A DNA stretch of 64,000 nucleotides, taken from positions 1,920,001 through 1,984,000 of the forward strand of contig CP084166.1 in the NCBI GenBank assembly GCA_021513695.1. Direction: 5' to 3'. Position numbers and translations under genes: made by a program. Source of the stretch: Candidatus Heimdallarchaeum aukensis. Lineage in GTDB: Archaea > Asgardarchaeota > Heimdallarchaeia > Heimdallarchaeales > Heimdallarchaeaceae. Below, one piece after another: positions 8,929-56,776 of this stretch (within the stretch, counting starts at the first letter, position 1; the number at the start of each line of letters is the position of its first letter). The notes below the pieces were generated by a model, which searched no databases, was not told the DNA's origin, and saw nothing but the letters and a program-made list of their open reading frames with translations.

Positions 8929-9054
8929 TTTAGGCCAAAAAAAAATTTTGGTAGTACAGAAAAAGCGTGACACTTGGAGTGTGCGTAAAAGTTAATTCAA
9001 GTTTTAAAAAGCGAAAAAGGTAATAACGACCGTACGAAAATCGTCTGAAAAAGA

Positions 9055-10531
<1,477 letters not shown>

Positions 10532-10536
10532 AAGTT

Positions 10537-10558
10537 TGGGGGGCCTCAGGCCCCTCCC
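10537..10558 (+). other. GC-rich hairpin immediately 3' of the 16S gene (ggggggcc-tcag-ggcccctccc)
   Basis: A perfect 7-8 bp G/C stem, the only such structure in the AT-rich flank. It is present in both copies of the direct repeat. Confidence 0.55.
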
Positions 10559-10562
10559 TATT

Positions 10563-10616
10563 ATTCTCTTTATTTACTCTCTGTTTTTCATTGCTTGGAG
10601 TTCTTGTTATCATTGG
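10563..10616 (+). other. pre-16S rRNA processing stem, 3' arm
   Basis: The reverse complement reads ccaatgataacaagaactccaagcaatgaaaaacagag..., matching 8880..8928. Confidence 0.65.
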
Positions 10617-10644
10617 ACTTTTTTATTTGTCTCAACTTTTCTTT

Positions 10645-10980
10645 ATCTCTTCTATTTTTTTCCATCTTTTTCTTTTATTACGTTTTCTCTTTTTTTCTCC
10701 TTTCTCCCTTTTTTCTCTAGGAGGTGATCCTACCTTCTGTTCTCCTACGGCTACTTTCTTGTTACTTTTTTTCTTTTTCCGCGCTTCTACCTTATTTTTG
10801 CAACAACGGGTGGTATGTTCTTTTTCTTTTTCCTTTTCCATTTCCTTTTTTTATCTAAGTATTAGATTTGTGATCTACGTAATTAATTGTATAGTGATTA
10901 GTTCGGTTGATAAAGCTTACAAAAATAGATTTTTCTTCGATTTTTCGATATTTTTTGTTACTTTTCTGATTTAAAGGTAC
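10645..10980 (+). repeat. long polypyrimidine (CT-rich) low-complexity tract
   Basis: The plus strand is almost purine-free over several hundred nt. ORFs called here are composition artefacts. Confidence 0.8.
10719..10820 (-). pseudogene. inverted, degenerate fragment of the 16S 3' terminal region
   Basis: aggaggtgatcc...cctacggctac...cttgttac...ccgcgcttctacc...gcaacaacgggtggtatgttc aligns to the reverse complement of 16S 10392..10531 with an internal deletion and many purine-to-pyrimidine changes. Confidence 0.6.
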
Positions 10981-11324
10981 TAGACTTTGTAATATAAGTC
11001 TTATAAAATCTAGCAAAATACCGAAACAGTAAGCGAGGATTTTAATTTTATTTTAGTTTCAACTACCTAATTCATGGCTCAATGAGTGGTAGGTTCTTCC
11101 TCCCTCCCGGATGGACCTTTCCCGAGAGCAAGATTACAGTACAAAAATTTTGTACAAAAATCGAGTTGATGGAACAATGTCTTCCTTTGGTCAGGTAAAC
11201 TTCTCTCCCTTGTTACTGTGACTGTATGTCTCATCCTAAATTAGCACAAAATATTGTTGTGGTTTTCTCCAATACAGAAATGAATTATTACAACAAGCCG
11301 TTAAATTAGAAAAAAGAATCAGAT

Positions 11325-12152
11325 ATGTTTCATATTAGGGTTACAAGGTTTAATATTTTTAAACAAAGGTTTTTTATACCTAAACAAATATTAATTATTA
11401 GAACATCTTATATTTTAAGCGTGCACACAATGGATTTTGAAGATTCAATTGAAATATGTATGAAAGTAGATAACATTAATTCAGAAATAGATGTTAATAT
11501 ATCAGAAGAAGAAAAAGATAGGATATATTTAGAGGTAATTCAATGGTTGAATGACAATCCAATTCGTTCGTTAAGTTCTGTAAGCGATTTTATGCAACTC
11601 TTGGAAAGTTTATTATGCTTGGAGATTAAAGAAGATGGAAGACTTATATTAAGTACTTCTGCTTACAGTGATCAACAGTTAAGTGAAGGACTTAAGAGAA
11701 ATAAGGATTTCTTTAATAATTTAATTAAGGAATTTCAAAATAATATTGATAAAGAAATAAATAGAGAGTATGAAAACGAAACAGAAGAGGTTCTATTATT
11801 ACGTTTTCTTAATACAGAAGAACAGATTATTGAGGGAATAAATGAAGTATCAAAAGCATTGACAAAATTCTCTTTCAACAGAAAAAGACGTAGATTTACA
11901 AGAATATTAATTGAAGCATTATTTGAATTTTTAGATAGTATTATTCTAATATTCATAAGATGGATTGAAATAAGTGCTAATAGAAACACAAAGAGAGAAA
12001 ATTTGTCTTTAGAATTATTAGAATGGGATATAAACACGTTTAAATCGACCATCTATAATATAAATAGAATTGCACAATTATCTCAAACAAGTATCGAAGA
12101 AGAAGGAAATAAAAATTTAGCAAAGGTCTTTATAGAAATTTTACAACAGTAG
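11325..12152 (+). CDS. hypothetical protein (the true start may be the ATG at 11430)
   Basis: Open frame with protein-like composition. The first 35 codons read like an AT-rich promoter. First gene of the island. Confidence 0.4.
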   Translation: MFHIRVTRFNIFKQRFFIPKQILIIRTSYILSVHTMDFEDSIEICMKVDNINSEIDVNISEEEKDRIYLEVIQWLNDNPIRSLSSVSDFMQLLESLLCLEIKEDGRLILSTSAYSDQQLSEGLKRNKDFFNNLIKEFQNNIDKEINREYENETEEVLLLRFLNTEEQIIEGINEVSKALTKFSFNRKRRRFTRILIEALFEFLDSIILIFIRWIEISANRNTKRENLSLELLEWDINTFKSTIYNINRIAQLSQTSIEEEGNKNLAKVFIEILQQ

Positions 12153-12162
12153 GAGGTTTTTC

Positions 12163-12948
12163 ATGTCTTTAATTTCAATTGGACATGATACATGTATTCT
12201 TTTAGCATACATATATGATGATGGAATTAGAGATGAATTTGAAAATTATCTTGAAATAAGTAATAATATTAACAATAGAAGTTATTCAAAATATTATCAC
12301 TTACTTCTAAAGTCAGTCGTTGATGAGATTAGTGCGGTGATAGGATCTCGTTTAGGTAATATAATTAAAGAAATGTCAAAAAAATTACAAGAAATAATAC
12401 CTGAAAGAACTACATCTTTATCAATGAAACAATTAAGCGAATTCCTTGAATATATGGAAGATCTAGAAACGATTTATCCAAAAGATGCTGGATTAATTAG
12501 ATATATTAAAAGAAATATGTTAGACAAGAAAAAAAATTACTCTTCTTTAATTGATACAGCTTCAAGAAGGAAAAAATTTTCAGAAATGATAAGTCTAAAG
12601 AATAGGTTCGATATTAATTACTTTTCATCACTTTTTGGAACCTACTTTAAATACTATGATCCAACTGATAAGCTAAGAGATACTGAAATTAAGGAAGATT
12701 TTGAAGAGATAATGAAGAAAATCTTTAAAGGTGCAAGAACAAAAAGAAATACTTATGATAAAATTCACATTTACTCATGTTGCGCTTTTATACGGGAAAA
12801 TAGAAATGATAATCTAAAGTTTACGACCTCTGATCAAATACTACTTGAAAACTCTAGATTATTAGAAAAATATTTTGAGATAGTAGATATGCAATCGTTG
12901 GTAAGATTACTTTACACCCACATGGATTCTCTTCCAGAATCTGTTTGA
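12163..12948 (+). CDS. hypothetical protein
   Basis: 261 aa, preceded by a perfect SD, aggaggtttttcATG. I recognise no family. Confidence 0.5.
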   Translation: MSLISIGHDTCILLAYIYDDGIRDEFENYLEISNNINNRSYSKYYHLLLKSVVDEISAVIGSRLGNIIKEMSKKLQEIIPERTTSLSMKQLSEFLEYMEDLETIYPKDAGLIRYIKRNMLDKKKNYSSLIDTASRRKKFSEMISLKNRFDINYFSSLFGTYFKYYDPTDKLRDTEIKEDFEEIMKKIFKGARTKRNTYDKIHIYSCCAFIRENRNDNLKFTTSDQILLENSRLLEKYFEIVDMQSLVRLLYTHMDSLPESV

Positions 12949-13025
12949 CCTAGTTAATATTTTTCATTTTCTTTGATTTTTATACCGTTTACCGTTCTCT
13001 TTAAACCCATGAAGTATGGTTTCTT

Positions 13026-13301
13026 ATGGCAGATAGATGGAAAGATAACCAAGATAACATTTTTGAGCAATTTTTTCTAAAATATTTTGAATTTAGAAAA
13101 AATAGTAATAATAAACAAAATGATGCATTAAATGAAATTTTAGAGTATATTAAACAAAAAGAAAAATCCAGATATTGGGATTTATATTGCTTTCTTCAGT
13201 CAACTCCTGTGAGAAAAGAATCCCCTTATGTTCGCAAGTTTTCAACAAAGCCATTAAATAAAAGATGGCTAATTTATAAATGGAAAAGCTTTTTTTATTA
13301 A
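13026..13301 (+). pseudogene. gene fragment paralogous to an internal segment of the downstream NACHT-LRR gene
   Basis: ADRWKDNQDNIFEQFFLKYFEFRKN...ILEYI compared with IADKWKDSKENNFEKFIIKCLEFRRD...ILDYI. The 17-nt string gaagtatggtttcttat is identical at 13008 and 14986. Confidence 0.55.
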
Positions 13302-13345
13302 TAGCGTAAAAACTAATCTTGTTTTAAAGAAAGGAGTAAAAAACT

Positions 13346-16300
13346 ATGCCTAATAAGAAAAGAATCTTCGTATTTTTTATTATTCTGTTAGTACTTTCTT
13401 TCCTTGTTGGAGCACTACCTGCTTTAGTTTCAGAAGGAATCTTTCATTTAAATAGTACGTTAGTTATCATTCTTGCATTATTAAGCCCAATACTAAGCCC
13501 CTTTATTGAGCTTATTTACAGTAATATTGCAAATATAGTTAAAAAGGCCAACTATAACAGAAAAAGAATCGTTTCAATCTTAGAAGAAAATTATCGCAAT
13601 TTTATTCAACATTTAATTATTCCTTCTGCGAGAGGAAACACAGTTAATGAACTTTTACCTCTCCATTCAATAGAACGAAGAATTATGAGCGTTGAAGATT
13701 TGGAAAAATATGTCGAAAGGGGTGAGAAGAACGTTGATTCTTTTCCTTTTACACAAATTGTAGAAGAATTAAAAGGTTCACCTCCAAGATCACTCTCTTC
13801 TAGCCCCCTAAAATATATTATTACGGGAATCTTGAGAAAAAGAAAAAAAATAAAGAACGAGGGAAAAAGACTTCTCAAATATATTATTACAGGAATTCCC
13901 GGAGTAGGGAAGACTAGTTGTTCTTTTCAACTTGCCCTAAAACAGTTAGAAGCTTTCAATAACAAAGAATCAAATTATCTTCCTCTTTGGTTTGATATAG
14001 GTGAAAGAACTGGAAGAAAACAGCTAGGAAATGGTTTGAAATCATTACGTGATATACTTAAGGATTGTAGTACTCAGGTGTCAAAAGAAGAACAACTTAA
14101 AACCTATCTTGCTTTTCTTGAAGGTAAATCTGTTGATAATGTAGAATTACGTCTTTCTGATGATGATTTTGAAATCTTCTGGATTCTCGATGGATGGAAT
14201 GAAAACCCCATAAATGATATGATTACTTGGTTAAGCAATAGAGATACCATAACTATCTTTTCTAGAATGGGAGGAGAACCTTTAGGCTCATCTTCAATTT
14301 CTTTTGATAAATATACTCTTAGACCTTTTACTGTTCAAGATTCCATCTCTTTTCTAACTCAGTTTAATCATGTCCCTGAAAAATGTGCACGTATTATCGC
14401 TAGTTCACTAGATGAACATTATGGTGAAGAATTTCTTATTCCTTTCTTTCTAAATATTATAGTTTATAACTTATCAATACAAGGGATCAATGATACGGTT
14501 CAAACAATAAATTACTTCAACATCGAGCAGACTACTAAATTTAGTTTTTTAAAAGATTTTTTCTACTCTATACTCGAACGTGATTTTTCAAGTATAAATG
14601 CTCAACGTAAACTTAATGATCGACTAAAAAGACAAATTCTCTCTTGGTTCTCTCAAATTCTCTATTTTATAGTGAAAAAAAACTCTAATGTCCCTTCAAG
14701 GATGATTTTCAGAGAGGAAGATTTGCAAGACGCAATAGATAACGTACGTCCTCCAGAAATTGTGAGAACTGATCCTTTAGAAGTATTGACTGATTTATTA
14801 TTTATAGAAAAAGTACAAGATAACAGAGGGGAACGGACTATTTCTTATAGTTTAGTCCATGAACTATATTTAGACTTTTTTCTAGCTTATGCTATTAGTT
14901 CCTTTTGGGAAAAAAAAGAGAATGAGCCTAAATTTGATAACGATGGTCGAATGTATCTTCAGTGGATGGATAATGAATCTTTCGATGAAGTATGGTTTCT
15001 TATTGCTGATAAATGGAAAGATAGCAAAGAGAATAATTTTGAGAAATTTATTATAAAATGTCTTGAATTTAGAAGAGACAAGAAAGACAATCAAGATCTT
15101 ACACTACAACACATTTTAGACTATATTAGAAATAGAGTACTTTCCTATTCTTTTTTACATCCTAATAAACGAAGTATCTCTTCTCATCATAACATATGTT
15201 TATCTTTAAGACTTTTTCCTGGTGGAATTAAAGAATTAGATTTGAGTGAAACAAAAGTTACAGACATTAGTGCTCTTGTGCACTGCACAAATCTACGATA
15301 CTTAGATTTAAGTGGAACAAAAGTTACAGACATTAGTGCTCTTGTGCACTGCACAAATCTACAATACTTAGATTTAAGTGGAACAGACGTTCAAGACATT
15401 AGTCCTCTTTCGCACTGTCCGAATCTACAAAAAATATATTTAAGTGGAACAGATGTTCAAGACATTCGTCCTCTTTCAAGTTGTCCAAATCTACAAGTGC
15501 TGTATTTACTTGGAACACACGTTCAAGACATTAGTCCTCTTTCAAGTTGTCCAAATCTACAAGTGCTGTATTTACTTGGAACACACGTTCAAGACATTCG
15601 TCCTCTTTCAAGTTGTCCAAATCTACAAGTGCTGTATTTACTTGGAACACACGTTCAAGACATTCGTCCTCTTTCAAGTTGTCCAAATTTACAGAGATTA
15701 CGTTTAAGTGGAACAAAAGTTACAGACATTAGTGTTCTTAAAAACTGTCCGAATCTACAAGAATTAGATTTAAGCGATACAGACGTTCAAGACATTAGTC
15801 CTCTTTCAAGTTGTCTAAATCTACAAGAACTGTACTTACTTGCAACACACGTTCAAGACATTAATCCTCTTTCGCACTGTCCGAAACTACAAGTATTAGA
15901 TTTAAGGGGTACACACGTTCAAGACATTAATCCTCTTTCGCACTGTCCGAAACTACAAGTATTAGATTTACATGGAACAAAAGTTACAGACATTAGTGTT
16001 CTTAAAAACTGTCCGAATCTACAAGAATTAGATTTAAGTGGAACAAAAGTTACAGACATTAATCCTCTTTCAAGTTGTCTAAATCTACAAGCACTGTATT
16101 TAAGTGATACAGACGTTACAGACCTTAATCCTCTTTCAAGTTGTCTAAATCTACAAGCACTGTATTTAAGTGATACAGACGTTACAGACCTTAATCCTCT
16201 TTCAAGTTGTCTAAATCTACAAGCACTGTATTTAAGTGATACAGACGTTACAGACCTTAATCCTCTTTCGCACTGTCCGAAACTACAAGTATTAGATTTA

Positions 16301-16861
16301 CATGGAACAAAAGTTACAGACCTTAATCCTCTTTCAAGTTGTCCGAAACTACAAGTATTAGATTTACATGGAACAGACGTTCAAGACATTAGTCCTCTTG
16401 TAAGCTTACCCCATCTACAATACTTAGTTTTACGTGGAACAGACGTTCAAGACCTTAATCCTCTTTCGCACTGTCCGAAACTACAAGTATTAGATTTACA
16501 TGGAACAGACGTTCAAGACATTAGTCCTCTTGTAAGCTTGCCCCATCTACAATACTTAGATTTAAGTGGAACAGACGTTCACGATATTAGTGCTCTTTCA
16601 AGTTGTCCAAATTTACAGAGATTACGTTTAAGTGAAACAAAAGTTACAGACATTAGTGTTCTTGAAAACTGTCCAAATCTACAAGAATTAGTTTTACGTG
16701 GAATAGAAGGTGAATTTAATATTTCTCCTATCATTCGGCATAGACAATTATTAAATCTTGATTTTGATTCTTCACTACAGTTGCTTTGTCCTCGAGACCT
16801 TCAGGATAGTATTGAAGCTCCTGCTCTTCTCAAGATAAAAGATCAAATACAATTTTTCTAA
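13346..16861 (+). CDS. membrane-anchored NACHT/STAND NTPase with C-terminal leucine-rich repeats (NLR-like protein)
   Basis: Two N-terminal hydrophobic helices. Walker A GIPGVGKTS at about 13892..13918. NACHT-type Walker B FWILDGWNE. Helical middle region. About 22 tandem 22-aa repeats of the form LxxCxNLQxLxLxGTxVxDIxPL. Confidence 0.8.
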   Translation: MPNKKRIFVFFIILLVLSFLVGALPALVSEGIFHLNSTLVIILALLSPILSPFIELIYSNIANIVKKANYNRKRIVSILEENYRNFIQHLIIPSARGNTVNELLPLHSIERRIMSVEDLEKYVERGEKNVDSFPFTQIVEELKGSPPRSLSSSPLKYIITGILRKRKKIKNEGKRLLKYIITGIPGVGKTSCSFQLALKQLEAFNNKESNYLPLWFDIGERTGRKQLGNGLKSLRDILKDCSTQVSKEEQLKTYLAFLEGKSVDNVELRLSDDDFEIFWILDGWNENPINDMITWLSNRDTITIFSRMGGEPLGSSSISFDKYTLRPFTVQDSISFLTQFNHVPEKCARIIASSLDEHYGEEFLIPFFLNIIVYNLSIQGINDTVQTINYFNIEQTTKFSFLKDFFYSILERDFSSINAQRKLNDRLKRQILSWFSQILYFIVKKNSNVPSRMIFREEDLQDAIDNVRPPEIVRTDPLEVLTDLLFIEKVQDNRGERTISYSLVHELYLDFFLAYAISSFWEKKENEPKFDNDGRMYLQWMDNESFDEVWFLIADKWKDSKENNFEKFIIKCLEFRRDKKDNQDLTLQHILDYIRNRVLSYSFLHPNKRSISSHHNICLSLRLFPGGIKELDLSETKVTDISALVHCTNLRYLDLSGTKVTDISALVHCTNLQYLDLSGTDVQDISPLSHCPNLQKIYLSGTDVQDIRPLSSCPNLQVLYLLGTHVQDISPLSSCPNLQVLYLLGTHVQDIRPLSSCPNLQVLYLLGTHVQDIRPLSSCPNLQRLRLSGTKVTDISVLKNCPNLQELDLSDTDVQDISPLSSCLNLQELYLLATHVQDINPLSHCPKLQVLDLRGTHVQDINPLSHCPKLQVLDLHGTKVTDISVLKNCPNLQELDLSGTKVTDINPLSSCLNLQALYLSDTDVTDLNPLSSCLNLQALYLSDTDVTDLNPLSSCLNLQALYLSDTDVTDLNPLSHCPKLQVLDLHGTKVTDLNPLSSCPKLQVLDLHGTDVQDISPLVSLPHLQYLVLRGTDVQDLNPLSHCPKLQVLDLHGTDVQDISPLVSLPHLQYLDLSGTDVHDISALSSCPNLQRLRLSETKVTDISVLENCPNLQELVLRGIEGEFNISPIIRHRQLLNLDFDSSLQLLCPRDLQDSIEAPALLKIKDQIQFF
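15221..16710 (+). repeat. 66-bp tandem repeat array (about 22 units, several adjacent units nearly identical) encoding the LRRs
   Basis: For example, the units at 15469..15534, 15535..15600 and 15601..15666 are near-identical at the nucleotide level. Alternative-frame ORFs in the track repeat the same peptide. Confidence 0.9.
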
Positions 16862-17159
16862 ATTGTTGTATATTAGTTTTTTCTTTTTAGAACACCTATC
16901 TTTCTGAAAAAAATCTATTGTTCAGTTATAGCCATAAATCTTTTTTTATGATTGTAAATTTGAATCTATCTTACACAAAAGATCTACCTGTTAACATCCC
17001 TTATTATTTTAGGTAAGATTCTATCCCTCTTTCATGATACAGTTCTAGATATACTGAATTATCTACAAACTGTCAAAGAGCAATACAACATAACAGTGGT
17101 TACTCTTGCTTTTTAGAAATCTCCCTTCATTAGGAGAAAGGAAAAAAACACGATATTGT

Positions 17160-17289
17160 CCTGCGGATGGATCACCTCCTAAGTTTGGGGGGCCTCAGGC
17201 CCCTCCCTATTATTCTTTTTACTCTCTGTTTTTCATTGCTTGGAGTTCTTGTTATCATTGGACTTTTTTATTTGTCTCAATTTTTCTTT
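17160..17289 (+). repeat. direct repeat copy 2 (last 20 nt of 16S + GC hairpin + processing-stem 3' arm) without an upstream 16S gene
   Basis: Identity with 10511..10644 begins exactly at cctgcggatggatcacctcct. Confidence 0.9.
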
Positions 17290-17496
17290 CTTTCATGTTC
17301 TAACACTTTTAGTCGTGTTTCCACCAAAATCCCTTTTCAACTTTCTAAATTTTTTATTCTCGCTCCCATTCTTCTCCATTTTTCTCCATTTTTCTTTTTT
17401 TTTCTAACTAACCTTTTTCTCCCTCTTCCTTTCTTTCTCTCTCCTTCCCCTTTCTTTTTTGGATAAATTTATGTACTTTTTTTCTCTCTTTTCTGT

Positions 17497-18117
17497 ATGT
17501 TTCTTTCTCCTGACCTTTCTTACCTTGTTGGTGCCTTACGTGACGGTTCTGTTTACTATTATTCTCGGAATAGGTCTTACTATACTCTTTTTTATCAAAA
17601 GTATCGTTCTTGGCTTGTTCACTCTATTGGTAAGCGTATAACTAGATTATTTGGTTTAAACTATTCTATTGACGAATATAAGCGCGGTCATTATCGTCTT
17701 CGCATTTCAAGCAAGCGCTTGTATTCTCTCTGGATTGACCAATTTGGTTTTCCTCGTGAGGGTGAGACTCAGTTACACTGGGATGTTCCTCGTCTTATTT
17801 TAGATAGCGATCTTCTTACTCAGTCTTACTTTCTCCGAGCTTTTTTTGACACTGAGGGTGATGTTTCTCCTTCATCTAGTTCTACTTATTATCTTGGTTT
17901 AAGTCAAAAGAATACTACTGTTTTATATCAACTTAAATCTCTTCTTTCTTCTTTCGATATTAAAACTTCCTCCATTCATTTAGCTGATAAAAAGTCTAAT
18001 ACTTACAGGTTTAGTATTGTTGGCAAGGAAGAAATTTTCAAATTTAGGGACAAGATAGGTTCTGAGCACCCTGTTAAGAAAGAAAAAATTGACCAAATTC
18101 TTCTTTCCAGCGACTAA
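17497..18117 (+). CDS. free-standing LAGLIDADG homing endonuclease (two-motif)
   Basis: Motif 1 LSYLVGALRDGSV and motif 2 YFLRAFFDTEGDVS. 206 aa. Strongly T-rich codon usage (tct, ctt, cgt, ttt) unlike neighbouring genes. Confidence 0.75.
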   Translation: MFLSPDLSYLVGALRDGSVYYYSRNRSYYTLFYQKYRSWLVHSIGKRITRLFGLNYSIDEYKRGHYRLRISSKRLYSLWIDQFGFPREGETQLHWDVPRLILDSDLLTQSYFLRAFFDTEGDVSPSSSSTYYLGLSQKNTTVLYQLKSLLSSFDIKTSSIHLADKKSNTYRFSIVGKEEIFKFRDKIGSEHPVKKEKIDQILLSSD

Positions 18118-18619
18118 ATTATTATTTTTTAATTATCAAGAGCATTAAGGGTTTATTCAGCTTATTTTTGTCTCTTTAGATATGGATTAGCTTTTTCTTT
18201 CTTAGATGGAAGTTGTTTGTTTATAGAATTGCCTTTCCTCCTTCCTTCTCTTTCTTATCCTTTCTTATTTTCTCTTTATTCCTCTTTATTAAGTTTCAAA
18301 TACATATTCATTGTTAGTTTATTCTTTCTAGCCTAATTTATTCATTTTTAGATCCATACCTTTCCTTTTTAGTTAACTTTCTTTTTAGCTATCATATTAC
18401 AGCTATCACTATCAATAATGCTATCGACTATCACTATCAAAGGGAGTGATAACATTAAGAAAATAAAGATAAAGTGAATGAAAAGAAAGGAAAAAATAAG
18501 TAAAAGCAGAAAAAGTAAAAAACGGACATAAGGTAAAAAAAATAGAAGAGTAAGACTTAAGTCAAATACAAAAAAGTTTAAGATAGAATTGTAAAAAAGA
18601 GAATCAAAAGGAAAAATAA

Positions 18620-18715
18620 GACCCTGTAGCTCAGCAGGATAGAGCGCTGGCCTTCTAATCTCAGTTGAGAGAAGCTAGTCAGCGGTCGACGGTTCGAATC
18701 CGCCCAGGGTCGCCA
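18620..18715 (+). tRNA. tRNA-Arg (anticodon TCT) with a 19-nt intron after the anticodon loop (about 18659..18677), CCA encoded
   Basis: Acceptor stem gaccctg/cagggtc; D stem gctc/gagc; anticodon stem ctggc/gtcag with loop cttctaa; T loop ttcgaat. One A-C mismatch in the T stem lowers confidence. Confidence 0.55.
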
Positions 18716-51604: not shown

Positions 51605-54600
51605 CTATTGTTCAAGAAGAAAATCTGATAAATTAACAGATTTCTTTTTCTCTGTTTTTCTAATTTTACGCTTTGATTTTTTATCAGCTGATCCATCATC
51701 AGGTAGGAACATTGTTAAAATGTTTTGTTTTAGTACGTCTATCCTAGATCGCAAATATTCTGAAACTGAATATTTCGAAACTAAATAATTGATAATATTA
51801 AGATATTTGGTTACTGATTTTTCAAAAACAGTAAGATTTAGCTTATTTGCACCACATTTTGTACAATATCCGCCCAAAGGAATACGACGATAGGTAGTAT
51901 TACAATTTGTGCAACGTATTTTTTGGCTACCAAATCTACGCATATTACCTATAAGATCTGGCAGAAATTGTTTGAAAATTACTCTTGTTGCTACATCGTC
52001 AACATCAACTGCTCTAATCTTACTAGCTAGTTCTAATTGTGCATCCACTTTTTCTTTCATTGTAGCTAAACGAGTATAAAGAGAAGATTTTTCGCCTACG
52101 AAAATTGAGGAAGTCTCATGACTATAGGAAAAACCTTCATAGGCAGCTTTTGTGTTTAACCTATGACTTACAATGTCAATTAAAGGGAGAACCTTCTTTG
52201 CGGGTAATGATTTCAGTGTAGATTCATAAAAAGACAAAGGATAAGAGTTACCTGTATCAACGTTATGAGACTCATCATCAACCTCAAAGGGATCTATTGT
52301 AGAAACCAAAATTAGCGGGGCATCCATTTGACCGCCTCTAACTTCTGGTAAAAAGAATTTTGAAAAATTAAGAAAAGCATCAAGAGCTAGAAGAATACTA
52401 TCCTCATCTCCATCGCAGTTCATCGTAATGCAACTAGTTGTCTGGAAATTATGTAACATTGTGTCATTTCTTATTGTTTCAACTTCCAAACAATATGAAG
52501 CCTCTTCTTTTGCAATATTATTTATTTCAGCTATTTGGTCACATATAGTATTATGTGCTTCTTTAAGTTCATAATAGTGATTGTTGTATTTTATCCGTCT
52601 ATTTTCAGGAAAACCTTTTTTAATAAATTGTTTCAGTTTTTCTTTTTTATTTTGATTAATTAGATCTAGATGTTGCATTATCCAAAGGTCTGCTCCTCTA
52701 ATAGATATTTTGTGAACAACTGTCTTTTTAGGCTCTTTTCCCAATTCTTTATATTTTTCCAATATTTTTTTGCCAAAATGTCCTTCTGGAGAAGATACTC
52801 TAGATCTTACGAATACACCAATGGTTGAAAAGAGATAAGTTATATCCTTTAATAATTCATTTGAAACAGAATAGAATGATATTTCCCCTACATCTTTTGA
52901 GAGCGTTCCATCTCCATCTAGATAGGCGGAAATAAAAGCTAATTTATATTTAGTTGGTACTGTATAGAGAAAGTTTGGCAAACGTTTTCTATAAGCTCCT
53001 TTCCCCATATTCCATGCATATGCGAAAAGATAGGCTAATATTCTTCCAGAACAAATAACGTTTCTTTCTTCGCTGATATAAGGAGTAAGACCTAGAGTTC
53101 GTTTTATTATTTCCACCAAATATTTTCTCATTTTTTCGTCTGGGATAGAAAAATTAATCTGATAACAGTTCTTATTATCCCGAATATGTCCTTCAGAAAT
53201 GTAATAACCTAGAATTCTCATTAACTCATCATTAAAAGGAAAATAGGGAGAAATAGTAAAATCATCTCTAGCCATCCCCAATCTTGCATCTGAAGGGATC
53301 TCATTCCAGTCAAAAATTCCTTCTTTTTGCAAAAGTTCTAAGTGGGATAAGGGGATAGAATCAAACCAGTGATTAGAAAAGAAGTATGTAGAATGAGGTA
53401 TATCGATTCCTTTTGAAAGAATATAATTTAGAAGTATCTTAGTACATGAAGAAGAGTTAATATTGCTGCTTTTTTCTTGAGAAAGTTTATTGCAGAAATC
53501 GTTTAACTTACTTTTTATCCAATTTCGGGCTTTTCTAAGTCTTACTGTGTGTTTAAATTCAGTAAACTTCTTGCTGTCAGGTAAGTTTTTTGCCAATTCC
53601 TCTAAAACATTTACTACTTTGTTATGTTGAAACCCTAACTCTGGAATCTTTGTTTTAATTGCAATATATTCGCCTATTTGTAAATTTCTTGCTTTCACAT
53701 TTTCGAAATCATTTGTCAGTTCATTCAACACGAGCATATTGTGGTCAGGTGTTACTGTTATTTCATTTCCACTTTTGGTTTTTATTTGCAACCATCTTTC
53801 ACTTTTTCCCTTAATCCAATGCTTGATGGGTTGTAAAATAGAAGAAGAGTTTTTTTGATCTAGACTAATGACCTTCCATTCTTTATGAAGATTCTCAATT
53901 GCAAATGTCCCAAAATCATCTACCAGCTTACTCTTAGCTCCTGATTTTATCTCTTCTTCTACTAGTTCTCCAATACTTTTTACAATGACCTGTTTCTTAT
54001 TTTCGTCCCAAATAAGTAGTTGTTCAGTTGGAAATAAACAATTTCTTCTTTTTGCTGCATGCCAATAAGGATGAGCTAATATTACTTTAGCATCAGTAAA
54101 TCCTATTAACCTTCCAGCAATACCTGCTGAAGTATGAGGAGCTAAACCTATAATTAAATGACCAACTAGGTCATTAATTGTTTTTGCTTTGTAAAAGGGA
54201 GGAAGTCCATACAATCTTTCTAACAACTCATCGATAAAATGAGAGACTTTTAGGAGATATTTACCTCCTTCCTCATTAACAATCACATCTTGAATTTTTA
54301 ATTCTAGTAGCTGATCTTCATTTTCTAGTAAATTCCCATGAATATCGTGTGTATAACCTATAGAATGGAGTTTTGAAATTGAAACACCAATTTCTTTTGG
54401 CTTAAAATGCGTAATTACAGCATCAGTAGCATCAAAACGTATTGTTCCATCACGGTATACAAATACATCGTTTAAAGAACGTAATATCCCTTTTACTATA
54501 AATTCTGGTATACGATGTTTATTCATCAGTTTTTTAACAGCTTTTACATTTTTAGGTAAATCAGAGTTAAATTCTCTTGCAATTTTTCTAAATTCTTCGT

Positions 54601-56776
54601 TAATAGGAAAGGGTTTAGTTTTGTAACTAATTAGAGGTATCCCACACCTTTTACATTTATCGTCATTAGATTCTAACCCACATCTTGGACAAAATTTAAT
54701 GATTTCTGTTACTACATTACAACGTGAACATATGGATAAATGCGTAGTAGAACCACATACATGACATTTTCTTTGTACTAATTCGATCTCTATAACTTTT
54801 TTTTCACTCGCGGAAACAATATTTCTTTGATTACCTCCTGCTTCACCAATTGGAAAAAGTAGATGCACTGGAGGTTTCATCTTTCTACTTTTAGCTTTTT
54901 CTGGACGCCCCATTCTTGCACCAGTATAACAAGGACACTTATCTCTCACTTTAATATATTTGTAGGAGTTAATTATTTCTAAAACAGTTTTTGCTTTATT
55001 TTCCACCGGAAGTAAACTTCCATTTTTAAAACCTAAAGATATTAGTAGAGTTTGCGAATGTTCCCCAAATAAAATTTTTCCATCCCTTATAGAGTGAGGA
55101 ATGCATATTTCTTCCAAAATTGTTTTTATCTCTTTATCATAAGGTAACTCTAAATTTTCATCTTTATTATAGTATGATGATATATATTCACGTAACCGAA
55201 TATATGCAGAAATTGAAATATCATTCCAATGATATGTATATTCAGGATGAAGTGGAATATCAAGTAAAAGCGATAGTCCTATAGCTTCTTCAGCGGTTGG
55301 GATAATGTTCAAGGGGTCTTTTATGAACTTATCAAACTTTTGTTTTTTATTTTTAAAAAACTGATTTATCTCTACTTCAGAAAAATTCATTAACTGCTTC
55401 TCAAGTTCTTTTGCCCACCATTCTTCACAATATCCAGAAGGTACAAGATCATGGTTAAACTGGTTAAATTCACCTACACCATAAAGCATATCTCCAAGAA
55501 AAAGAATCTTTTCTATTTGATCTTTTAATTGAATACCTTCTTCATAGGAATTAACTTTACAAACATTACCGTTTTTTAGAAGCACAATAGGTGGATGTAT
55601 AGAATCCACAGGCATGACAATGGCTCCTTTTCCGGGTCTTTCTGTTCGCAAATGTGTTCCACAAACCAAAAAATCATTTGTGATTGCAAAAAGTGCTGGA
55701 TGTACACCCATTGCAGCTAATCCAGTAATTCTAGAACGCCCATATCTAATCCTAAAACCACCTTTCGCGGATGGATGACTAAAAACTGGCCTTCCACCAA
55801 TTACGTCTTGAATATAACCTGTATCAGGCTTAATAAACAAATTATCTTGCTCAATTTCATGTTTACTTGTACCTTTTTCTTCATCAGTTTCTCCAGAATT
55901 CTCAATATTCTGGCTTGAGTGTATTTGTATTAAATCGGAAAACCAGTCCCAACCCTTTAATTTATGTTTTGATACTCTTTTTTCAAGTTTTTTTACTCTA
56001 CCCACAATACCGTCATTAAAAACTAAACAAGCACCTCCTCTAAGTCTATTAGTTTCAATACGTTTCAAATCTCTATTTCCAGAAACTTCAACTTTCTCAG
56101 TAGGTTCTCCTGTGATTTCAATGGGAAGATTTCTTGCCGCAAATCGCTGCTCCTCTTTAGTTGTGGGAAGTTGTAAATGCATTACTTTGTTGTAAAGATC
56201 TATTTCCTCTACCGTTCGCTCTATTTCTCTCTCTGTAGGTTTATACCTATCAAGTTTTAATGTTCGTCGTATGTGATCAGCCAACAAAACACTCATACCC
56301 GCTGCCGTACCACCAGCAGAGCGTATAGGTCCAGCATAGTAAACAGCTAAGTAGTCGGATCCGTCATCATTTTGCTTAATTTTTACTTTCGCTATACCTT
56401 CAAGAGGAGCTGCAGTGATGCTTTCAGTTATTATTGCCAATGATGTACGGAGTGCTTGCTCGGCGAGCTCAATTTTTTCAGAAGAAAAAAATTTACCTTC
56501 AGCTATTTCTTCTGCAATTTTAAATGCCACGCTTTCGCGAGAGAGACCTTGTCTTTCAAGTTCTCTAATTCTCTTCCCAACCCCTTTAGGTCCAATTAAT
56601 CCTTCAACTCGATCAGCAATATCTTTAGCGATAGGTATTTCAACTTCAGAAGAAGGATCATAACCTTTTTTTCTCGCCTGTTTAGCAATCCTATAAGTTT
56701 GTTCTATCAATGAATTAATTTCCTCAAAATATCCCCTAACATTTACTGAAATTAACTCGTCATCTGATATTTCCAT
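51605..56776 (-). CDS. polC: DNA polymerase II (PolD) large subunit DP2, interrupted by an intein
   Basis: N-terminal DP2 region; CxxC zinc clusters; conserved ...HAAKRRN / CDGDED... junction split by a 541-aa insertion. Confidence 0.9.
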   Translation of the reverse strand: MEISDDELISVNVRGYFEEINSLIEQTYRIAKQARKKGYDPSSEVEIPIAKDIADRVEGLIGPKGVGKRIRELERQGLSRESVAFKIAEEIAEGKFFSSEKIELAEQALRTSLAIITESITAAPLEGIAKVKIKQNDDGSDYLAVYYAGPIRSAGGTAAGMSVLLADHIRRTLKLDRYKPTEREIERTVEEIDLYNKVMHLQLPTTKEEQRFAARNLPIEITGEPTEKVEVSGNRDLKRIETNRLRGGACLVFNDGIVGRVKKLEKRVSKHKLKGWDWFSDLIQIHSSQNIENSGETDEEKGTSKHEIEQDNLFIKPDTGYIQDVIGGRPVFSHPSAKGGFRIRYGRSRITGLAAMGVHPALFAITNDFLVCGTHLRTERPGKGAIVMPVDSIHPPIVLLKNGNVCKVNSYEEGIQLKDQIEKILFLGDMLYGVGEFNQFNHDLVPSGYCEEWWAKELEKQLMNFSEVEINQFFKNKKQKFDKFIKDPLNIIPTAEEAIGLSLLLDIPLHPEYTYHWNDISISAYIRLREYISSYYNKDENLELPYDKEIKTILEEICIPHSIRDGKILFGEHSQTLLISLGFKNGSLLPVENKAKTVLEIINSYKYIKVRDKCPCYTGARMGRPEKAKSRKMKPPVHLLFPIGEAGGNQRNIVSASEKKVIEIELVQRKCHVCGSTTHLSICSRCNVVTEIIKFCPRCGLESNDDKCKRCGIPLISYKTKPFPINEEFRKIAREFNSDLPKNVKAVKKLMNKHRIPEFIVKGILRSLNDVFVYRDGTIRFDATDAVITHFKPKEIGVSISKLHSIGYTHDIHGNLLENEDQLLELKIQDVIVNEEGGKYLLKVSHFIDELLERLYGLPPFYKAKTINDLVGHLIIGLAPHTSAGIAGRLIGFTDAKVILAHPYWHAAKRRNCLFPTEQLLIWDENKKQVIVKSIGELVEEEIKSGAKSKLVDDFGTFAIENLHKEWKVISLDQKNSSSILQPIKHWIKGKSERWLQIKTKSGNEITVTPDHNMLVLNELTNDFENVKARNLQIGEYIAIKTKIPELGFQHNKVVNVLEELAKNLPDSKKFTEFKHTVRLRKARNWIKSKLNDFCNKLSQEKSSNINSSSCTKILLNYILSKGIDIPHSTYFFSNHWFDSIPLSHLELLQKEGIFDWNEIPSDARLGMARDDFTISPYFPFNDELMRILGYYISEGHIRDNKNCYQINFSIPDEKMRKYLVEIIKRTLGLTPYISEERNVICSGRILAYLFAYAWNMGKGAYRKRLPNFLYTVPTKYKLAFISAYLDGDGTLSKDVGEISFYSVSNELLKDITYLFSTIGVFVRSRVSSPEGHFGKKILEKYKELGKEPKKTVVHKISIRGADLWIMQHLDLINQNKKEKLKQFIKKGFPENRRIKYNNHYYELKEAHNTICDQIAEINNIAKEEASYCLEVETIRNDTMLHNFQTTSCITMNCDGDEDSILLALDAFLNFSKFFLPEVRGGQMDAPLILVSTIDPFEVDDESHNVDTGNSYPLSFYESTLKSLPAKKVLPLIDIVSHRLNTKAAYEGFSYSHETSSIFVGEKSSLYTRLATMKEKVDAQLELASKIRAVDVDDVATRVIFKQFLPDLIGNMRRFGSQKIRCTNCNTTYRRIPLGGYCTKCGANKLNLTVFEKSVTKYLNIINYLVSKYSVSEYLRSRIDVLKQNILTMFLPDDGSADKKSKRKIRKTEKKKSVNLSDFLLEQ
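52418..54040 (-). mobile_element. intein (541 aa) with a LAGLIDADG homing-endonuclease domain inside polD-DP2
   Basis: Begins with Cys (CLFPTEQ...). LAGLIDADG motifs GYYISEGH and ISAYLDGDGT. C-terminal block ...LHNFQTTSCITMN is followed by the extein Cys of CDGDED. Confidence 0.8.

Follow-up and report, generated by a model that had tools for sequence, protein, structure and literature searches.

A transmembrane-NACHT-like-LRR protein with a homogenised 66-bp repeat array on the Asgard mobile element HeimM2

The gene described here lies on HeimM2, an 8-kb mobile element of Candidatus Heimdallarchaeum aukensis, and was analysed in a 64,000-nucleotide window (the whole stretch of DNA considered: GenBank assembly GCA_021513695.1, contig CP084166.1, positions 1,920,001 to 1,984,000 of the forward strand; coordinates are those of the window unless another contig is named). 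The open reading frame (ORF; 13346..16861, + strand), whose translation exactly matches UJG39917.1, encodes a protein of 1171 residues in which a transmembrane (TM) hairpin, a NACHT-like ATPase module and 22 leucine-rich repeats (LRRs) are read directly, in that order, in one polypeptide. Our reading, to which we assign a probability of roughly 0.7, is that HeimM2 encodes a TM-NACHT-LRR protein resembling nucleotide-binding leucine-rich repeat receptors (NLRs), and that its repeat array has been homogenised and reshuffled by recombination within the gene. Of the domain layout and of exchange between repeat units we are highly confident. The gene is cargo of HeimM2, a point absent from the preliminary description of this stretch.

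The array makes up the 3' third of the ORF. Tandem Repeats Finder (TRF) placed it at 15236-16707, with a period of 66 bp, 22.3 copies, 81% matches and a score of 1181, and also gave a 198-bp (three-unit) higher-order period with a score of 1336; at a TRF score of at least 100 it is the sole tandem array in the window. Split in frame, it consists of 22 units of 22 codons (15236..16687, + strand), which TRF, Pfam and NCBIfam support as 22 LRRs of 22 residues with the consensus LDLSGTDVQDISPLSSCPNLQV. These are followed by a degenerate capping unit and a C-terminal tail (16688..16858, + strand), this twenty-third unit being 27-35 of 66 nt away from every other. No stop codon interrupts the ORF frame across the array, and each of the other five frames contains 12-72.

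Several units are identical or nearly so at the DNA level. Units 14 and 15 show zero nucleotide differences, units 5/6 and 18/20 are 1 nt apart, and units 1/2 and 8/22 are 3 nt apart. In an exact-repeat scan the longest repeat was 145 nt at an offset of 66 (16059-16203 = 16125-16269), which defines a perfect 211-nt tandem run through units 13-16 (16059..16269, + strand). A second, near-perfect run covers units 4-7 (15455..15688, + strand), with exact repeats of 89, 78 and 65 nt. Other exact repeats of 58-89 nt occur at offsets of 1, 2, 3, 4 and 5 units, and one of 53 nt at 8 units; since these offsets include several units at a time, multi-unit blocks must have been copied too. Averaged over all pairs of units, identity is 77% at the nucleotide level, higher than the 65% at the amino-acid level. 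Measured against the consensus, the similarity coefficient Psim reaches 0.84 (DNA) and 0.75 (protein), computed with our own script on the column-majority consensus and not with T-REKS.

The preliminary description had reported near-identical 66-bp repeats inside an LRR domain, and both the repeats (22.3 copies by TRF, with a 211-nt perfect run) and the nature of the units (Pfam LRR_4, E = 1e-102) were confirmed. It had also seen a peptide repeated three or four times in an alternative frame. The ORF at 15444-15707 does contain one 22-residue peptide four times, three copies being exact and one carrying a single substitution; this ORF is a by-product of units 4-7.

The repeats are of the 22-residue SDS22/internalin class. 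L3, T6, V8, D10, L14 and L20 are invariant, position 1 is leucine in 21 of the 22 units, and 20 units hold a cysteine (20 cysteines in total). Outside this protein, even the best matches of the LRR domain do not exceed 50% identity, and several are fusions with NACHT or KAP NTPases. Nothing therefore hints at units having been exchanged with other known genes.

The similarity between units goes beyond what the protein alone would require. Invariant residues are encoded by one and the same codon in 20-22 of the 22 units, including codons that this genome seldom uses: leucine at column 14 is CTT in every unit (background 0.17), leucine at column 20 is CTA in 20 (background 0.18) and aspartate at column 10 is GAC in 21 (background 0.20), and the same holds for the commoner codons of column 8 (valine GTT, 22/22, background 0.39) and column 6 (threonine ACA, 22/22, background 0.53). 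The ratio of non-synonymous to synonymous polymorphism (pN/pS) among units is 0.20 at the scaffold columns and 1.19 at the 12 variable (x) columns, namely 2, 4, 5, 7, 9, 12, 13, 15, 16, 18, 19 and 22: the scaffold is constrained, and the x positions vary freely. Half-unit cassettes recur along the array, the first half being SGTKVTD, LGTHVQD or SDTDVTD and the second ISPLSSCPNLQV, INPLSHCPKLQV or LNPLSSCLNLQA, and as they are found in varied combinations, breakpoints must also fall inside units. Offset repeats and recombined cassettes together show a mosaic history.

An independent assembly of the locus was available in a 7274-bp contig of JGI metagenome 3300033149 (hereafter L001), which is colinear with 10419-17696 of the window at 99.4% identity. 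The two differ in 46 alignment columns, of which 30 fall within the array (1472 bp) and 4 within 4817 bp upstream of it, a 25-fold difference in density (Fisher P = 2e-15). Within the array the differences are clustered, the largest patches lying at 15518-15533, 15610-15642 and 16092-16114. Of 29 substitutions, 28 carry a base that occurs at the same phase in another unit (null expectation 0.29, P = 2e-14), and two multi-nucleotide tracts in the window version agree exactly, over 63 and 73 nt, with the neighbouring unit junction of L001. Templated, clustered differences of this kind are what gene conversion, or unequal exchange among the units, leaves behind. Because codons are homogeneous, x positions vary and the differences from L001 concentrate in the array, the units point to recent common descent and ongoing exchange over and above protein constraint. 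Concerted evolution of the array is thus well supported, and the earlier proposal of recent duplication or concerted evolution held up, with homogenised synonymous sites and with differences in L001 that are templated by other units.

What changed between the two copies is unit content, in gene-conversion-like tracts, and not unit count. This bears on the alternative that the locus is variable in copy number, with slippage or unequal crossing-over rapidly adding and removing units and array length depending on the strain. Such exchange is favoured by perfect tandem runs, the LRR domains of related proteins visibly differ in extent, and in fungal NLRs whose repeats show high internal conservation (HIC) internal conservation and length polymorphism are reported to correlate perfectly (PMC13449251). 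However, the population comparison of array length, run on L001 alone, gave 22 units in each copy, and the repeat-number polymorphism that is one of the HIC criteria was not seen in this weak test on a single pair of metagenome assemblies. Metagenome and viral collections yielded no further copies of the array. A DNA scan with the 21-nt unit core returned no viral match and one metagenome match, on a phage-like contig with no LRR array nearby (L007), which looks like chance similarity. A locus marked mainly by variable copy number we consider less likely than not, and the rapid repeat-number variation proposed in the preliminary description is therefore a reasonable expectation rather than a finding.

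The only length difference between the copies is a 1-bp deletion in a TTT run of L001 (5810-5811, window 16229). It breaks the ORF in two, with products of 962 and of 217 residues, and is either a real frameshift, with pseudogenisation in that population, or an assembly error.

The near-identity of the units could also have been created or exaggerated by short-read threading, the true array being less homogeneous or of another count. According to the genome paper, the assembly was made from 150-bp Illumina pairs using SPAdes with k up to 99, and Nanopore data served for scaffolding only (PMC8813620). The 211-nt run, with its 145-nt exact repeat, exceeds both k and the read length, and the number of identical units in that run therefore rests on read pairs only. 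The maximum exact repeat in L001 is 76 nt, and each large difference between the copies leaves the window version the more uniform. The earlier warning that assemblies may collapse here is accordingly relevant to this short-read source. Near-identical units are nevertheless present in L001 too, where units 13/14 are 1 nt apart and units 1/2 and 18/20 are 2 nt apart, the unit total is 22 in both assemblies, and codon homogeneity extends over all 22 units and not the perfect runs alone. Moreover, if the true sequence resembled L001 it would have no repeat of at least 99 nt, and a k = 99 graph would contain no loop to mis-thread. A pure artefact is improbable given the near-identical units of L001, the equal totals and the array-wide codon homogeneity, and part of the extreme identity could be a product of assembly. 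The published array sequence, being assembled from short reads, should not be trusted for copy number.

Between the N-terminal hairpin and the array lies a predicted central NACHT-type NTPase module of the STAND class (signal transduction ATPases with numerous domains; aa 90-625, 13613..15220, + strand), identified from an AlphaFold2 (AF2) model, Foldseek and the Pfam match of a relative. Its core motifs were read from a family alignment of nine sequences (A1) as GxPGxGKT, ILDGWNE, FSRPG and HELxxDFxLA. The Walker A motif GIPGVGKTS (aa 183-191, with K189; 13892..13918, + strand) conforms to the NACHT/STAND pattern GxxGxGK[ST] and is present in all nine members, its G, P, G, G and K being invariant. 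Walker B, D282-G-W-N-E286 (14189..14203, + strand), and sensor-1, F-S-R307 (14258..14266, + strand), are found in all eight members that extend past Walker A. Walker B, with invariant D and W, stands in the context FWILDGWNE (aa 278-286) in the NACHT style hhhhDGhDE, with N and not D at the fourth position in most family members; the NACHT pattern at this site is reportedly hhhhD[GAS]hDE, followed by acidic residues (Koonin & Aravind 2000; Leipe et al. 2004). Sensor-1, in which F and R are invariant, is the counterpart of the NACHT 'TSRP'. A further segment, HELYLDFFLA (14858..14887, + strand), conforms to H[ES]L..D[FY][FL]LA in every member reaching that far and offers H505 as a candidate winged-helix histidine; we take it to correspond to the NLR winged-helix motif FxHxxxQEFxAA.

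Standard profile models capture little of this module. The only Pfam match of the window protein over the P-loop was nSTAND3 (E = 0.013), PADLOC and NCBIfam scans of the ATPase gave noise at the level of the P-loop only, and a profile search of PDB sequences returned matches at the same level (RFC, adenylate kinase), uninformative on clade. One relative, P0010, matched Pfam NACHT with E = 2e-5 over profile positions 2-163 of 167, at 24.8 bits against a cut-off of 26.7. A single-sequence AF2 model of the N-terminal 652 residues was unusable, with a predicted local distance difference test score (pLDDT) of 36; the model built from A1 reached a pLDDT of 72 and a predicted template-modelling score (pTM) of 0.72. 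In the Foldseek search of the PDB with this model, the top 24 matches were all NACHT modules of animal NLRs, with NOD2 first at E = 2.8e-8 and NLRP5, NLRP3, NLRC4 and NAIP5 among the others (E = 2.8e-8 to 4e-6, probability 1.00, 430-590 aligned columns, query template-modelling score (TMq) 0.27-0.47); ORC/Cdc6 entered the ranking from rank 25 onward. The assignment of a NACHT fold, with its nucleotide-binding domain (NBD), helical domain 1 (HD1), winged-helix domain (WHD) and helical domain 2 (HD2), is a prediction modelled from a shallow alignment. By its motifs and predicted fold the ATPase would be a divergent NACHT, at scores below Pfam membership. The term NLR-like, already used in the preliminary description, is justified by the layout, the motifs and the predicted fold, NLR NACHT modules being the best structural matches.

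Just before the P-loop, the sequence LKYIITGI...LKYIITGIPGVGKTS marks an internal duplication spaced by 66 bp (13808-13830 and 13874-13896). It doubles the beta-1 strand, and the inserted stretch is of low confidence in the AF2 model. That the spacing equals the LRR period may be a coincidence.

The family to which this ATPase belongs is very small. When the N-terminal 630 residues were searched exhaustively with HMMER against 1.84 billion representative proteins, only eight relatives emerged (E = 4e-52 to 7e-11), which gives a family of nine clusters whose named members are all Asgard archaea. Two named relatives come from metagenome-assembled genomes (MAGs) of Ca. Hermodarchaeota and one from the same JGI metagenome as L001, and a profile scan of genome contigs placed one relative (locus L004) in a MAG labelled 'archaeon'. 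Word-indexed searches recovered nothing beyond the protein's own cluster, whether the query was the N-terminal half or the family profile, and single-protein pattern scans of genome and metagenome contigs found no relatives.

The ATPase is combined with various partners in these proteins. At the N-terminus P0004 has a TIR domain, the partial sequence P0007 a DUF4062 domain, P0006 a hydrophobic segment that is probably transmembrane, P0005 a region without a recognised domain, and P0008-P0011 a large domain of unrecognised type. The C-terminus consists of LRRs in P0004, P0006 and P0008-P0011 and of a Ras-like GTPase in P0005, and is not covered in P0007. P0004, the closest relative beyond the protein's own cluster, is encoded at 6170-12273 of contig L003 (GCA_048886025.1, a Ca. 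Hermodarchaeota MAG), directly downstream of a gene for a 1192-residue MmeI/Eco57I-type restriction-modification protein, which suggests that its neighbourhood is a defence island. Its TIR-NACHT-like-LRR order resembles that of plant TIR-type NLRs (TNLs). The LRR region of P0008 is also a tandem array at the DNA level (contig L005, 11649-12685, GCA_054014235.1), with 15 copies of a 69-bp unit, 75% matches and higher-order periods of 207 and 276 bp. By contrast, no DNA-level tandem array was found in the LRR regions of P0006, P0010 and the L004 protein, and HIC therefore arises lineage by lineage. The contig of P0008 also holds more LRR genes and a giant ORF.

The N-terminal hairpin of the window protein comprises two hydrophobic helices (aa ~7-29 and ~37-59; 13364..13522, + strand) and is a putative membrane anchor or effector. 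Kyte-Doolittle windows above 1.6 are confined to it, save for one isolated window at aa 363. Its flanks are rich in lysine and arginine (MPNKKR before, KKANYNRKR after), and by the positive-inside rule both ends of the hairpin are predicted to be cytoplasmic. This topology, together with the cysteines in 20 of the 22 repeat units, would place the ATPase and the LRR domain inside the cell.

The published annotation implies another role for the element's protein, as an internalin-like adhesin outside the cell or a factor for interaction with the host. The repeat region does match NCBIfam internalin models with E = 1e-66 to 1e-70, and the N-terminus is hydrophobic. These matches, however, score 225-235 bits against full-length cut-offs of 1050-1600, and some 530 residues of NACHT-fold P-loop NTPase, which needs cytoplasmic ATP, separate the N-terminus from the LRRs. 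The two helices with positive flanks, the cysteines of the repeats and the cytoplasmic TIR or DUF4062 domains at the N-termini of relatives likewise speak for an intracellular protein, and an adhesin is very improbable. A non-coding satellite or a mis-called CRISPR-like array, as might be suspected from a period of 66 bp, typical of repeat plus spacer, and from the tendency of MinCED to pick up intragenic tandem repeats (noted in PMC8813620), is refuted by the reading-frame and domain evidence and has a negligible probability: one frame is open over 1.45 kb in a genome of 30% GC with the other five closed, the array runs on unbroken from the upstream ATPase ORF, the LRR consensus is clear with purifying selection on its scaffold columns, and several whole units are identical with no CRISPR-repeat-like conserved block in the unit.

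For the NLR-like protein with an internally recombining array, we propose the following mechanism. The units would be kept alike by gene conversion, or by unequal exchange when they pair out of register, and the breakpoints would often fall within a unit. Since the scaffold is fixed and the x positions are unit-specific, such exchange would create new combinations of surface residues and could alter specificity; that it diversifies a ligand-binding surface is plausible. The C-terminal LRR domain, as sensor, would hold the ATPase inactive until it binds a protein of a virus or a competing element. Binding would lead to ATP-dependent oligomerisation of the NACHT module, and oligomerisation could then cluster the hairpins and damage the membrane, in a defence of the abortive-infection type as in bacterial NACHT/Avs systems. 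The hairpin may thus act as an effector, and in relatives its position is taken by TIR or DUF4062. That the protein serves in defence at all we would judge to be a little short of an even chance.

Several observations weigh against the reading of the HeimM2 gene as an NLR-like protein with a recombining sensor. The window protein stays below the gathering score of Pfam NACHT (PF05729), with no match at E <= 0.1, and matches no NACHT or defence model of Pfam, NCBIfam or PADLOC. There is only one independent copy of the array, with an unchanged unit count. The longest exact repeat is 76 nt in L001 and 145 nt in the window, which makes the window the more homogenised of the two, and a mis-threaded assembly would also yield templated differences, both sequences being metagenome assemblies. 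The split ORF of L001 may mean that the gene is dispensable or decaying in some populations. The pN/pS of 1.19 at the variable columns falls short of proving positive selection, and these columns lie on both the concave (22, 2, 4, 5) and the convex (12, 13, 15, 16, 18, 19) sides of the LRR.

Among known systems, the HIC NLRs of fungi and bacteria (such as Podospora HET-E/HNWD; PMC13449251) are similar in their effector-NACHT-tandem repeat layout, in near-identical repeats at the DNA level with a fixed scaffold, variable x positions and exchange between repeats, and in the independent origin of HIC in single lineages of a family. The protein Psim of 0.75 lies above the HIC threshold of at least 0.7 (PMC13449251), and repeat shuffling, a further HIC criterion, is seen in the 28 of 29 templated substitutions and the 63-73 nt tracts, with an assembly artefact as a possible source of the same pattern. 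The present case differs in its LRRs, its Asgard host, its location on a mobile element and the constant length seen in the one comparison made. In Archaea, WD40 is reported as the usual repeat type of ATPase proteins with HIC (PMC13449251), and a count of NLR-type systems is available for Asgard genomes (PMC11291487).

The bNACHT anti-phage proteins, which include the LRR-bearing bNACHT16 and TM forms (Kibby et al., 10.1101/2022.07.19.500537), share the single-protein effector-NACHT-sensor arrangement, the use of LRR, TIR and TM modules, and a conserved winged-helix histidine, for which we have a candidate motif here. Unlike them, the window protein scores below the Pfam NACHT and PADLOC models, and its family comprises nine clusters. 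Animal NLRs (NOD2, NLRP3, NLRC4/NAIP) provide the best structural match of the ATPase, over ~500 columns at 11-14% identity, and also have C-terminal LRRs. Their LRRs are however 28-29-residue repeats like those of ribonuclease inhibitor (RI), whereas those of the window protein are 22-residue SDS22/internalin repeats, and their effectors are CARD, PYD or BIR domains and not a TM hairpin; the fold match implies no orthology. Listeria internalins and SDS22 share the 22-residue unit LxxLxLxx(N/T)x(I/V)xDIxxL, a likeness of repeat type only, the internalins being secreted or wall-anchored and without an ATPase.

HeimM2 as published is the same locus with the same sequence. Wu et al. 2022 (PMC8813620) describe an 8-kb mobile element extending from the 16S rRNA gene to tRNA-Arg(TCT) (10532..18619). 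They assign to it an internalin-like LRR peptide together with a homing endonuclease, and report its 'repeat peptide-encoding gene' as a CRISPR spacer target. The array sequence is identical in the supplementary FASTA. The main text uses neither 'NACHT' nor 'LRR', and no mention of the hairpin, the homogenised array or the 135-bp 16S 3'-end repeats described below was noticed in the sections of the paper drawn on here, no search having been aimed at them.

A repeat search and alignment (A2) revealed two att-like direct repeats. The left copy (10511..10649, + strand) consists of the 16S rRNA gene's final 21 nt together with ~118 nt downstream, and the right copy lies at 17160..17294 (+ strand). 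The copies are near-identical, with one 4-bp gap and a few mismatches, both are also present in L001, and they bracket a 6.65-kb segment containing the NLR-like gene. They look like attL and attR of an element that used the 3' end of this gene as its integration site. The LAGLIDADG ORF (17497-18117), which the paper counts in HeimM2, falls outside the bracketed segment. The archaeal 16S rRNA gene itself (9054-10531) is the only copy in the genome according to PMC8813620; the 64-kb window contains no 23S rRNA gene, and the rRNA genes are therefore unlinked here. At the other end, ARAGORN reported a 96-nt tRNA (18620-18715) with a four-base anticodon 'tcta', probably the intron-containing tRNA-Arg(TCT) named in PMC8813620. 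An inverted, diverged copy of the 16S 3' end was also observed 185 nt past the gene (10718-10769 versus 10481-10532, 75% complementary), and may have been left by a previous integration or rearrangement at this hotspot.

Just upstream of the NLR-like gene, a 91-residue ORF (13026-13301) is a diverged partial duplicate of the region preceding the LRRs (aa ~547-600; 13009-13161 versus 14985-15137, ~76% nucleotide identity), as might result from decay of a second gene copy or from an internal duplication of some age. Two ORFs further upstream (11325-12152 and 12163-12948) were considered as remnants of the ATPase and rejected, BLASTP being not significant (E = 0.2-0.5). PHROGs, PADLOC and NCBIfam gave no significant family for the ATPase or the other HeimM2 ORFs. 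A diversity-generating retroelement was likewise rejected: no HeimM2 ORF matches a reverse transcriptase, LAGLIDADG being the sole Pfam match among the ORFs scanned (the 127-residue ORF at 10591-10974 was scanned against PHROGs only), and the only imperfect long repeat (the 13009-13161 versus 14985-15137 pair) has mismatches of all kinds. Elsewhere the window, which is archaeal, holds the genes for PolD DP1 and DP2 and for AglB. The gene for the large PolD subunit DP2 (51605-56776, - strand) carries an intein that includes a LAGLIDADG homing-endonuclease domain (Intein_splicing, E = 8e-16; LAGLIDADG_3, E = 9e-14).

New here are TM-NACHT-LRR recognition in a tiny NACHT family whose named members are Asgard archaea and which standard models miss, quantitative evidence for conversion between units, and the 16S 3'-end direct repeats that bracket the element. 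The advance is incremental, as the phenomenon is well known and the locus has been published as HeimM2. In animals and plants alike, intracellular innate immunity centres on LRR-sensing NLRs, and most prokaryotic relatives of these receptors use other repeat types. Heimdallarchaeia are the archaea closest to eukaryotes. The finding provides a concrete Asgard case of a NACHT-LRR protein on a mobile element, with a sensor array that bears signs of concerted evolution. It is a tentative proposition, with the odds somewhat against it, that HeimM2 carries a working innate-immune receptor of NLR layout, from a small Asgard-restricted NACHT family, whose LRR sensor is diversified by conversion within the gene, as is known for fungal HIC NLRs. 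If this is true, LRR-sensing NLRs and their diversification by repeat shuffling would already be present in Asgard archaea.

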